Shown piece after piece: positions 52,688 to 55,763 of a stretch of DNA of 64,000 nucleotides. Each line of letters opens with the position of its first letter. Positions within the stretch are counted from its first letter, which is position 1. The stretch spans positions 1 through 64,000 of the forward strand of contig CAVWLW010000034.1 in assembly GCA_963755715.1 (NCBI GenBank), written 5' to 3'. The position numbers and the translations under genes are program-made. The notes beneath the pieces are model-generated. The model was not told where the DNA came from. It saw only the letters and a program-made list of their open reading frames with translations, and did no database searches. Source of the DNA: an uncultured delta proteobacterium (lineage in GTDB: Bacteria > Desulfobacterota > Binatia > UBA9968).

Positions 52688-53542
52688 CTATCGGAACAAA
52701 ACCTTGGCCAACTCCGAGCGGTATTTGTCGGTCAACGGGTCGTCGGGGCCGAGCACTTCGAAGATCTGGATCATCGCTTTGCGCGCGCCGTCGTCTTGAA
52801 ATTCGCGATCTGCTTTCACGATAGTTAGAAATTCGTTGAGTGCCTCTTCATACTTCTCGGCCCCGGCGAGCGCCTGGGCGAGCTCGAAGCGAGCCGCGAT
52901 ATTGTTCGGCTCGACTTTGACTTTTTCGCGCAACGCCGCTTCATTCGCCGTCCCGCCGGCCTGAAGATTCAAACGGGCGATCAGCCGATCCGCTTCTTTG
53001 CGCTCGTCGGCGACCATAGGTACTTTATCGAGATGCTCCAGCGCGGTGGCGCTATCGCCTTCGTTCATGGCCAACCGCCCCAGCCCAAGCAGCGCCTTGG
53101 CATGGTTCGGATCGGATTCGAGAATTGTTTGGTAGAGTGCTTTCGCCTCGGCGGTTTTACCCTCTTCTTCGAGAGCTTGAGCCTCGAGCGCCTGCTTATC
53201 TGCCGCTGTCGGCAGAAACTTTGACAGGAACTCACGCAGCATCGGCTCCGGCAGCGCGCCGGTAAACTCCGACGCGAGATCGCCGTCTTTAAACAGCTTC
53301 ACCGCCGGGATGCCTTGGATGCCGAAGGCGCCCGCTAACCCCTGGTTTTCATCGACGTTGACTTTGGCCAGGATGAATTCACCGGCATACTCGTCGGCAA
53401 GTTTTTCGAGCACGGGACCCAGGACTTTGCACGGACCGCACCATTCCGCCCAGAAGTCCACCATGACGGGAACTTCCGTCGAGCGCTCTAAGACTTCCGC
53501 CTCAAAATTTTCTTCGTTAACGTCGATCGTCCACTGATTCAT
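52688..53542 (-). CDS. cnoX: Thioredoxin-TPR chaperedoxin (CnoX/YbbN)
   Basis: DFWAEWCGPC thioredoxin then TPR helices, ARKAMIQIFEVLG..DPL..YR. Confidence 0.9.
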   Translation of the reverse strand: MNQWTIDVNEENFEAEVLERSTEVPVMVDFWAEWCGPCKVLGPVLEKLADEYAGEFILAKVNVDENQGLAGAFGIQGIPAVKLFKDGDLASEFTGALPEPMLREFLSKFLPTAADKQALEAQALEEEGKTAEAKALYQTILESDPNHAKALLGLGRLAMNEGDSATALEHLDKVPMVADERKEADRLIARLNLQAGGTANEAALREKVKVEPNNIAARFELAQALAGAEKYEEALNEFLTIVKADREFQDDGARKAMIQIFEVLGPDDPLTDKYRSELAKVLFR

Positions 53543-53562
53543 ATCGGCTCTACTCTCTTACC

Positions 53563-53594
53563 TTGAACGTTTTGAAGGCTTGAACGATTTGAAC
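53563..53594. repeat. TTGAAC tandem repeat (period 8-9 nt)
   Basis: TTGAAC, TTGAAG, TTGAAC, TTGAAC. Confidence 0.6.
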
Positions 53595-53598
53595 AAAA

Positions 53599-53844
53599 TC
53601 ACTTGGCGATGATCGCCTTGGCGAAGTTGCGCACGTTGGCAGCCACCGGACGCATGGCGTAAACCACCGTCTCCCAAATCTCGTCCTCGCTGGCGCCGAG
53701 CTCGCGCGCCCGACCGAGATGGAGCTTGGCGCCGTGCTCATGGCCGATCGCCAAATTCACTGCGAACAAGATCAGTTGCGCCGCTTTCGGATCGAGCGAT
53801 CCTTCTTTATATTTTACATTGAAAAATTCAGCGTCCGTCGCCAT
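53599..53844 (-). CDS. Carboxymuconolactone decarboxylase/AhpD-like protein (no Cys)
   Basis: GGAGGT RBS; LDPK..QLI.FAV, H..RARELGASEDEI.E. Confidence 0.8.
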   Translation of the reverse strand: MATDAEFFNVKYKEGSLDPKAAQLILFAVNLAIGHEHGAKLHLGRARELGASEDEIWETVVYAMRPVAANVRNFAKAIIAK

Positions 53845-53866
53845 TTTATCACCTCCGTGTCGCGAA

Positions 53867-54358
53867 TTATTTTTTGAATGAATCCGGATCAAACGCCGCG
53901 CCGTTGAGCGTGTACTCGCTTTTCACCTCCGTCGGCTTGCGGATGGTCTGAATCACATAACAGCCCGCCTCGGCATTGCGTACGACTTTGGCGATTTTTT
54001 CCGGTGATTCATCGGAGGTTATTTCGCAGCGGGTTTCCACGCCCAATCCTTCCGCCTGTACGGTCTCGCGTAATACTGAGCCCTCGTTCTTGAAGCGCGC
54101 CATGACAAAAACCTTCGCTTTATCGATGTGCGTCTTGAGCATTTCCCCGTACCGGGAAATTTGCGTCAGCAGTCAAAACCCCACCGAAAGGGCGAAATAC
54201 GCGAGCGGCGGCGGCGCGGTATTGGCGCCGCCGATACGTTCACCCTCGTCGCAAAAAACCGTGAAGCCGCGCGCGTGCCCTTCTTTGCGCATCCGCTCCA
54301 AGGTTTCGGCGTCGGCTTCCAAGACAATCTCCCGCTTGATTTGCAGATCCTCGCCCAC
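53867..54358 (-). CDS. OsmC/Ohr-family peroxidase, putative selenoprotein (in-frame TGA at 54173-54175 read as Sec), 163 aa
   Basis: Two track ORFs share one frame separated only by TGA: DEG...GGANTAPPPLAYFALSVGF-U-LLTQISRYGEMLK...AEAGCYV. Confidence 0.8.
54139..54164 (-). promoter_or_regulatory. Bacterial SECIS-like hairpin
   Basis: GCA(AA)UUUCCC-GGUACG-GGGAAAUGC; apical GGU at +23..+25 counting U of UGA as +1. Confidence 0.62.
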
Positions 54359-54446
54359 GATCCCTCCGGGTAGTCGACCCTCCCACTGCGCGCTTCAATC
54401 AATATATTCACAATCGCCGGTTGTTTCCAGCCGCGAAAAGTTTCCC

Positions 54447-55514
54447 TCACGGGCGCTCGATGTTCGAGTATTCTTCCGAATAGAGATCGAGCAACGCTCG
54501 CAGCAGCGCTAACAGCGCCGGGCCGAGCACGATCCCCACCGCACCGAAAAGCGAGAGACCGCCAAGGATGCCGAAAAAGAGAAATAGGACCGGCAGGCCG
54601 AGACGATTGCCGATGAGAAGCGGCTTGAGAATATTGTCCACCGTGCCGACAAATCCCAAGCACCAGACCAACAGCACGACGCCGCGCACCGTTTCGCCCT
54701 GGAGAAACAAGTAAATCGCGGCCGGTATCGAAACGATCGCCGACCCACCCACCGGCAACAGCGAGACAAAGGCCGTGACCACGCCCCACAATACCGCGTA
54801 CGGGACACCTAAAAACCAATAAGCCCAGCCGGCGAGCAGCCCCTGCACCATCGCGACGACCAGGGAACCGTGCACCACGGCCAAAACGGAGTCGACGATG
54901 TTTTTGAACAGCCGCTGTTGATGCTCTTGGTCCATCGGCAGCAGCCGCTGAATCCGATTGACCAGCTCGGCACCGTCGCGCAGGAAGAAAAATAGCGTAA
55001 ACAAAGCAACGATAAAATTAACCGTGAAAAGCAGCACGTTCTGAGCGATCCCTTTGACTTGTGTAACGATAAACGTCGACGAAGATTGTGCCCCTTGAAT
55101 CAACAAATTCTTCCAGTCGATCTTGAAATCCACCAGTCGGAACGTCGCCATATCCCACCAACCGATCAAGTGCTGCACCCACGGCTGCGCCAGCCATTGC
55201 TGCTTGCCATCTTCGTCCAGGAGCAAACGCACCGACTGAAGCAACGAGACCGCCTCGTCCGCTAAAAACCGCGCCAGCTCGACGCCGGGCGCGATCACGA
55301 TAATCGTGATCACGACGATGACCGTCATCGCTGCGAGCGTCGCGCGCCCGCGCATAAGTTCGAGCAGCCCGGCGTACACCGGGTAGAAGAGAATGGCGAG
55401 AATCGCCGCCCAAGTGATCGCCGTCAAAAACGGCGTCAAGATCAAGAACGCGCCGTACAGAATGAGCAGAAGAAGCGCGAAGAAAAAAGCGGTCACGAGC
55501 CAAGTTCGATTCAC
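54447..55514 (-). CDS. AI-2E family transporter
   Basis: PFLTAITWA, FFFLRDG, DNILKP, GIVLGP; GAGG RBS before GTG 55514. Confidence 0.88.
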   Translation of the reverse strand: MNRTWLVTAFFFALLLLILYGAFLILTPFLTAITWAAILAILFYPVYAGLLELMRGRATLAAMTVIVVITIIVIAPGVELARFLADEAVSLLQSVRLLLDEDGKQQWLAQPWVQHLIGWWDMATFRLVDFKIDWKNLLIQGAQSSSTFIVTQVKGIAQNVLLFTVNFIVALFTLFFFLRDGAELVNRIQRLLPMDQEHQQRLFKNIVDSVLAVVHGSLVVAMVQGLLAGWAYWFLGVPYAVLWGVVTAFVSLLPVGGSAIVSIPAAIYLFLQGETVRGVVLLVWCLGFVGTVDNILKPLLIGNRLGLPVLFLFFGILGGLSLFGAVGIVLGPALLALLRALLDLYSEEYSNIERP

Positions 55515-55763
55515 CGAGTGGCTTCCTCTCCAATCCGTCAACTGTACGTAGAAGAACTGTCGGTGGCAAGGCGCCACAAACCGCGATAGCCCGTGCGGCG
55601 AAAGCTTAAGCGCAAGCATCGCTGCAATTGCAAAGGGCAAGATTTGAATTGATGGTCAATGTGCCAATCGTAGACAGATCCATCTGATGCCGCGGATTAC
55701 TGCCGCTGATGAAAACGGTCAGGCGAGAAAGTAAAAACTGCGCGGCCCGGATTTCCGGAGCGC

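Follow-up and report, generated by a model that had tools for sequence, protein, structure and literature searches.

The minus-strand frame from position 54358 to 53867 of the window (the whole 64,000-nucleotide stretch of DNA analysed here) is very probably a gene that encodes selenocysteine (Sec) by design, and its predicted product is a selenoprotein of the OsmC superfamily. Judged by comparison with its relatives, the gene truly belongs to a selenoprotein family that has already been described and curated. It is no new kind of system, since its U-L-L-T sequence (U, Sec) is the motif already published. Features of the window and of its genome are collected in Table 1.

The frame comprises 163 codons followed by TAA, and codon 62 is its sole in-frame TGA, as seen in both the sequence and its translation. 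This TGA (54175 to 54173) closes an open reading frame (ORF) of 54358 to 54173, and onward from it the frame stays open until the TAA at 53869 to 53867. The second ORF listed here, 53867 to 54142, opens at an internal ATG, and the gap between the TGA and that ATG consists of ten sense codons (LLTQISRYGE). An earlier note on this DNA had described two ORFs sharing one frame and parted by a single TGA, together with a read-through product of 163 amino acids (aa). Both descriptions held: no second stop was found between the TGA and the internal ATG, and translation of 54358 to 53867 on the minus strand reproduced the product. With the TGA read as U, the 163 residues carry U62 in the context ...APPPLAYFALSVGF-U-LLTQISRYGEMLK...AEAGCYV (also ...PPPLAYFALSVGF-U-LLTQISRYGEM...), and the second Cys lies in ...NAEAGCYV.... 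The same note expected standard annotation to split such a gene, and this is borne out by the databases, where 119 of the best 120 relatives are C-terminal fragments of 90-102 aa and the single full-length one (P0002) carries W at position 62.

Table 1. Features of the window and of its genome (G000). Positions are those of the window unless a contig is named; + numbers count from the U of the UGA.
Feature	Position	Strand	Evidence or remarks
Predicted OsmC-like selenoprotein gene	53867..54358	-	start GTG 54358-54356; GGAGGG 54367-54362; Pfam OsmC, NF041052, AF2
Predicted Sec codon UGA (codon 62), first residue of UxxT (U-L-L-T)	54173..54175	-	invariant column; TGA or Cys in homologues
Cys133 codon (TGT), second conserved redox residue, presumed resolving Cys	53960..53962	-	invariant C133 column; aligns with second Cys of 3cje, 1vla, 1lql, 2onf
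Predicted SECIS-type hairpin, AUUUCCC / loop GGUACG / GGGAAAU	54141..54160	-	+16..+35; fold energy, covariation, absence from Cys forms, synonymous constraint
Promoter-like site TGGAAA-17-TATATT, ahead of the OsmC-like gene in a gap of 88 nt	54401..54429	-	consensus match alone
AI-2E family transporter gene, upstream, ending in TGA (54449-54447)	54447..55640	-	Pfam AI-2E_transport, 184.1 bits
CMD/AhpD-fold protein, 81 aa, without Cys or CxxC	53602..53844	-	Pfam CMD, 36 bits
Thioredoxin (WCGPC) fused to TPR	52688..53542	-	Pfam Thioredoxin, 101.6 bits; TPR_20, 99.3 bits
selD, two frames in the assembly	G000:C3:71086-72013 (loci L010/L011; about L011:1500-1510)	-	short A run longer by one base than in 5/5 relatives
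AhpD-like frames with CxxU motifs C-F-Y-TGA-T and C-S-Y-TGA-T	G000:C68:29761-30111 (L148), G000:C33:43157-43273 (L149)		

The read-through protein matched the NCBIfam model NF041052, "OsmC-related (seleno)protein," at 175.9 bits (E = 4.1e-52; cut-off, 95 bits), its residues 13-153 covering positions 2-144 of the 144 in the profile, and the same model scored 166.9 bits at the OsmC-like gene in a six-frame search of the genome. The Pfam OsmC domain (PF02566) was recognised as well, at 48.1 bits versus a cut-off of 27.5, and U62-L-L-T65 corresponds to the UxxT motif published for OsmC-like selenoproteins. That family, with its UxxT motif and its SECIS element, was described in 2005 from Sargasso Sea data (Zhang, Fomenko and Gladyshev, PMC1088965); that paper gives 3 marine sequences. 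The motif is also tabulated in two later reviews (PMC13188914 and PMC9312934), which file the OsmC-like selenoprotein under PF02566 or COG1765 (YhfA). With a published UxxT family and a curated NCBI model to cover it, the earlier note was right in calling OsmC-like selenoproteins a known class. The window gene resembles the family, as defined by NF041052 and PMC1088965, in its UxxT motif, whose Sec takes the place of the first conserved Cys, in the SECIS-type hairpin just downstream and in having Cys homologues. There is no difference in kind, although the window copy comes from a soil lineage, whereas the 2005 sequences are marine; the named records nearest to the gene are labelled Candidatus Binatia or Deltaproteobacteria metagenome-assembled genomes (MAGs). 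Unlike what was found described for the family, the window lineage has several Sec paralogues per genome and keeps a thioredoxin-TPR gene as neighbour, and for neither of these did a narrow literature search, judged by titles, find a prior description. The expansion of OsmC-like selenoprotein paralogues in a soil lineage is a useful side result, as are the clear difference in the hairpin between Sec and Cys forms and the thioredoxin-TPR neighbour.

Conservation of the TGA was then assessed across relatives. The alignment placed column 62 in 70 loci, from which L047 (of the unpublished genome G035), also a TGA form, was excluded; among the remaining 69, the codon is TGA in 47 and TGC or TGT in 22, and no other codon occurs. 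This agrees with the expectation of the earlier note that homologues would have Cys or TGA at this column, and so do the named MAG records, of whose 45 loci 44 cover the column, all 44 with TGA. Within the same order (G000 plus 60 relatives), 60 of the 61 genomes have family matches. Each of the 101 best-scoring matches listed (176.8 to 120.7 bits) contains one TGA, with 2 of the 101 having a TAG besides, and at least 55 of the 61 genomes searched hold a TGA-containing copy among those best 101 matches; the 61-genome tallies include the unpublished genomes G005 and G035. A family of this breadth has been missed: redox inventories of these abundant soil bacteria lack OsmC-like selenoproteins because gene callers cut them at the UGA.

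When the comparison was extended to 29 rows reaching down to 16% identity (alignment A3), the only invariant columns were C62 (Sec or Cys), C133, and N152. A maximum-likelihood tree of these 29 rows requires at least three Sec/Cys switches, with Cys clades nested beside Sec clades; this is the classic pattern of a selenoprotein family. It adds well-supported Sec/Cys sister pairs in which the Sec forms have the hairpin and the Cys forms have none.

Paralogue content differs among these genomes. G000 has one Sec form along with Cys paralogues on contigs C50 and C9. Other genomes of the order, for example G041, G023, G045, G043, and G036, have three to six TGA paralogues each among the matches listed, and by score the TGA paralogues of the order form roughly three classes (near 165, 140, and 125 bits). 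Two copies, L050 (G032:C189) and G007:C9:17163-17585, bear an extra in-frame TAG besides the TGA, and the hairpin of L050 is weakened by a C-C mismatch at its closing pair; these copies may be decaying.

The hairpin follows the TGA closely. On the minus strand its 5' arm occupies 54160-54154, the loop GGUACG 54153-54148, and the 3' arm 54147-54141; in the register kept family-wide, +17 to +22 pair with +28 to +33 around a GGUAC loop. The stem-loop with GGU at +23 to +25 (U of UGA, +1) that the earlier note had reported was thereby confirmed. For comparison, the E. coli fdhF SECIS element has its GGU loop at +22 to +24. Folded alone, the 24-nucleotide (nt) hairpin reached -9.5 kcal/mol (z = -2.65), and 2 of 200 shuffles folded as well; the 46 nt from the UGA folded at -12.8 kcal/mol, and the 71-nt context folded no better than its shuffles (z = -0.95; 36/200). 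A scan of 53500 to 54700 against Rfam (E <= 10), a library that may hold no model of bacterial coding-region SECIS elements, gave no match. The bacterial SECIS model of Zhang and Gladyshev, in the form quoted in PMC13188914, has an apical loop of 3-9 nt with G in its first two positions and then G or U, a stem of 4-16 bp, a UGA-to-loop distance of 16-37 nt, and a minimum free energy (MFE) of -7.5 kcal/mol or lower. The window hairpin lies within the model on all four counts, with a loop of 5-6 nt that starts with GGU, a stem of 6-7 bp, a spacing of 19 nt and an energy of -9.5 kcal/mol. It is like bacterial SECIS elements (those of the E. coli fdh genes and the model as quoted there) in its place within a coding region, its small GG(U) apical loop, its stem of 6-7 bp, and an energy below -7.5 kcal/mol, while its sequence is unrelated to those of the E. 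coli fdh elements.

The main weight of the case for the hairpin comes from the comparison with relatives and not from single-sequence folding. Between subfamilies the arms differ wholly yet stay complementary (UUUCCC/GGGAAA, CUGACGC/GCGUCAG, UGCGC/GCGCA, and UUGUCC/GGACAA), and the loops are kept at +23 to +27 with the pattern RGUNN (GGUAC, AGUUG, GGUUC, GGUCC, and AGUGU); the hairpin of a divergent group, L066/L067, has the loop GCUU. Covariation was scored on a gap-free alignment of 34 distinct TGA sequences for the helix that pairs +16 to +22 with +28 to +34. In this set 78.2% of helix cells are paired versus 58.7 ± 2.3% in shuffles, and the covariation score is 0.451 versus 0.153, neither value being reached in any of 500 shuffles; the sequences are kin, so such tests overstate significance and the tallies are to be taken as counts, not probabilities. 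Controls in which the helix was slid along the TGA forms gave at most 58.8% pairing and a covariation score of at most 0.227, and 6 of the 7 helix pairs vary on both sides. For the same helix in 22 Cys forms, pairing amounts to 44.8% of cells versus 42.4% in shuffles (71/500), a control in which a two-column MAFFT gap puts 4 of the 22 rows out of register with the structure, and no covariation was found for it in these 22 forms.

Further measures were taken on both forms. The loop of the longest hairpin spans +24/+25 in 33 of the 34 distinct TGA sequences and spans +25 in 2 of the 22 Cys forms. The mean MFE over +10 to +46 is -10.6 kcal/mol for the TGA forms and -8.4 kcal/mol for the Cys forms (Mann-Whitney p = 0.002), a comparison to which we prefer the counts on the position-fixed helix because the rows are kin and G+C is high. 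The RNAalifold consensus energy of the 34 TGA sequences is near zero (-0.28 kcal/mol) because the subfamilies use slightly shifted registers. Codon usage was informative as well: among 35 distinct close orthologues, codons 66-73 are the 8-codon window of lowest synonymous-codon entropy in the gene (0.22 bits, versus 1.12 bits elsewhere), and the only synonymous sites that are frozen are those under the hairpin (codons 67-73), which points to constraint on the RNA and not on the protein. The window hairpin is thus a predicted SECIS-type element, conserved and covarying in TGA forms and absent from Cys forms, and the SECIS-like reading given in the earlier note was upheld by its agreement with the published model and by the covariation among TGA forms. 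At window position 54142 the contigs from DNA runs X1 and X2 have A for T (plus strand). On the minus strand AUG (Met73) thereby becomes UUG (Leu), and the shared-register helix would gain an A16-U34 pair; the difference, which falls within the 3' arm of the hairpin, has the look of strain variation.

The earlier note had suggested searching the genome for selA, selB, selC, and selD, and genes for all four functions were found. The genome that holds the window (G000; 93.6% complete) has adjacent selA (617 bits) and selB (416 bits), both above cut-off, and a tRNA-Sec at 76.7 bits, also above cut-off, which ARAGORN reported as tRNA-SeC with anticodon tca. A selD above cut-off adjoins selB; it has its own Sec-type TGA near the N-terminus and is split by a one-base indel. 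Two AhpD-like frames (L148 and L149) are likely further selenoprotein genes of G000; their scores lie below the NF041238 cut-off because the C-terminal domain alone matches.

Other readings of the TGA have to be weighed against a Sec codon. The gene could be an ordinary pseudogene or an assembly error, in which a Cys codon was mutated or misread as TGA and the two halves are remnants; standard callers do split it, and the fragments that make up 119 of its best 120 relatives would suit such a view. These very fragment calls, however, imply a TGA conserved in hundreds of relatives. Across three families of the order, 47 + 44 loci have the TGA at the same column, even where protein identity drops to about 21-30%; the two halves of the gene keep their common frame, and independent contigs carry the TGA too. 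A check of the TGA in sequencing data, as the earlier note had advised, found agreement in contigs of two other DNA runs: neither the 1336-nt contig of run X1, which covers the whole region, nor that of run X2, which covers 53886-54500, differs at 54173-54175. We consider a pseudogene or an error of this kind to be exceedingly improbable. The contigs of RNA libraries (X15 and X16), libraries that can hold DNA, lie at 54244-54383, 53600-53804, 53821-54056, and 54269-54378, and none of them spans the TGA. Near-cognate read-through of UGA does occur in bacteria, which would favour a third reading, that a changed code or SECIS-independent read-through places Trp, Gly, or Cys at the UGA and yields a protein without selenium; the deposition of P0002 with W at position 62 is in keeping with it. 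Against this, TGA terminates 19 of the 47 long frames in the window, and that it ends the upstream AI-2E gene marks it as an ordinary stop here. In several genes of the family itself (L054, L049, L057, L059, L061, L068, L071, and L073) TGA is both the column-62 Sec codon and the terminal stop, so that its decoding depends on context. The genome has a complete Sec machinery, and a position-fixed, covarying hairpin accompanies the TGA and is absent from Cys forms. Insertion of an ordinary amino acid is accordingly held to be most unlikely.

A further possibility grants the descent of the gene from selenoprotein genes and denies its present use: if the selD frameshift is real, the strain could not make selenophosphate, translation would stop at codon 62, and the gene would be an incipient pseudogene. 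In G000, selD indeed occupies two frames, with one base more than in all five relatives compared, and in the 25 genus relatives that have its N-terminal part, selD is without exception single-frame and carries the TGA. Used as a gauge of assembly indel errors, rpoB and rpoC are intact and free of indels; errors are therefore not everywhere and the assembly is not riddled with them, a result by which the selD frameshift is neither explained nor excused. The extra base, however, belongs to a homopolymer run. Consensus errors are common in such runs, and an error of this type is presumably the cause here, being likelier than a real lesion. Moreover, the OsmC-like gene is intact in both halves, as are the hairpin, selA, selB, tRNA-Sec, and the two AhpD-like CxxU genes, and at least 14 DNA runs contain near-identical copies of the OsmC-like gene. 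Loss of decoding is an unlikely explanation, if less so than the two readings above, and a gene for a selenoprotein that is still decoded is the reading we prefer.

Structural comparison places the protein within the OsmC fold. The AF2 model (pLDDT 94.8) has OsmC topology; U62 falls midway along helix 51-73, and C133 at the break that separates helix 119-132 from helix 134-139. Foldseek returned 64 PDB matches at E <= 0.001, led by OsmC/Ohr entries (2onf, 6mjn, 1vla, and 1lql), 2onf being nearest by fold (TM, 0.75/0.86), and by profile the nearest solved relative is 3cje (82.6 bits). C133 aligns with the second Cys of 3cje, 1vla, 1lql, and 2onf, the second Cys of the OsmC superfamily in helix alpha-2. 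The protein shares with the Ohr/OsmC thiol peroxidases (1n2f, 1usp, and 1vla) its fold and the places of two redox residues, in helix alpha-1 and at the alpha-2 kink; it differs from them in having Sec for the first Cys, and its family has no conserved Arg/Glu. In alignment A3, with its 29 rows, conservation of Arg or Glu falls short of 90% in every column, and the column of the Glu in PLE/PVE of 1vla and 2opl, which we take to be the catalytic Glu, is Ala in the window protein. Canonical Ohr entries matched the family profile at E values of 0.12-0.16, and E. coli OsmC was absent among the structure matches of that profile at E <= 1. As for the role of these residues, catalytic Arg and Glu stand beside the peroxidatic Cys in Ohr/OsmC peroxidases, and YhfA-type proteins keep two Cys, lack the Arg and Glu, and are of unknown activity, according to PMC8945050.

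Given the absence of a conserved Arg/Glu and the E values of the canonical Ohr entries, peroxidase activity is an analogy. The statement of the earlier note that Sec replaces the peroxidatic Cys stands in part: alignment puts Sec at the first conserved Cys position, and the word peroxidatic is carried over by analogy. On that analogy, the chances for and against thiol/selenol peroxidase-type chemistry appear evenly balanced. By both profile and fold, the protein is nearest to the uncharacterised OsmC-like branch of the YhfA/COG1765 type (3cje, 2onf, and 1ml8), which is where the reviews file the selenoprotein. Those proteins have Cys where the window protein has Sec, and they do not settle the chemistry because their own function is unknown.

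A working mechanism can be proposed from the established bacterial pathway. The ribosome would meet UGA at codon 62 of the OsmC-like mRNA, and the hairpin 13 to 32 nt beyond the UGA, with its GGUAC(G) loop, would be bound by SelB together with GTP and Sec-tRNA(Sec). The SelB-bound hairpin would then lead to insertion of Sec, with no termination at the UGA. In the folded protein, Sec62 in the middle of helix alpha-1 would take the first conserved Cys place of OsmC/Ohr and Cys133 at the alpha-2 kink the second. The selenol of Sec62 could be oxidised by peroxide or another oxidant to a selenenic acid, which Cys133 would resolve to a selenenylsulfide, and this bond might be re-reduced by a thiol reductant, for which the downstream WCGPC thioredoxin-TPR protein is a candidate.

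In the window, the AI-2E transporter, the OsmC-like protein, the 81-aa CMD-fold protein, and the thioredoxin (WCGPC)-TPR protein are encoded in a run on the same strand, with a terminator-like site (a consensus match alone) after the last gene. In 24 of 30 species-level loci (the window locus and L047 counted) the OsmC-like gene is followed on its own strand by a thioredoxin-TPR gene. So it is in 30 of 44 named loci, and contig ends cut several of the remainder. The active site is WCGPC in 28 and WCAPC in 1 of the 30 loci with the gene; more divergent Sec paralogues are without this neighbour. Being a conserved downstream neighbour, the thioredoxin-TPR protein is a candidate reductant, amenable to testing, for an OsmC branch whose function is unknown. 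That it does reduce the OsmC-like selenoprotein is a tentative suggestion and on balance doubtful. Ohr and OsmC are reported in PMC8945050 to be reduced by lipoyl proteins, not thioredoxin, and their lipoyl dependence means that the analogy does not favour such a reductant; by contrast with those lipoyl proteins, the conserved neighbour of the window family is a thioredoxin. It is possible, though we think it rather unlikely, that the OsmC-like Sec protein works with the WCGPC thioredoxin-TPR protein as a dedicated pair, a selenoperoxidase or selenol-disulfide reductase coupled to thioredoxin; such a pair would be mechanistically distinct from lipoyl-dependent Ohr/OsmC and would have expanded to several Sec paralogues per genome in the soil lineage. 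Of the 44 named loci, 22 have the CMD gene interposed between the OsmC-like gene and the thioredoxin-TPR gene, as have 2 of the 30 species-level loci. Its protein has GHEHG where AhpD-like proteins have CxxC, a motif largely conserved among the named loci.
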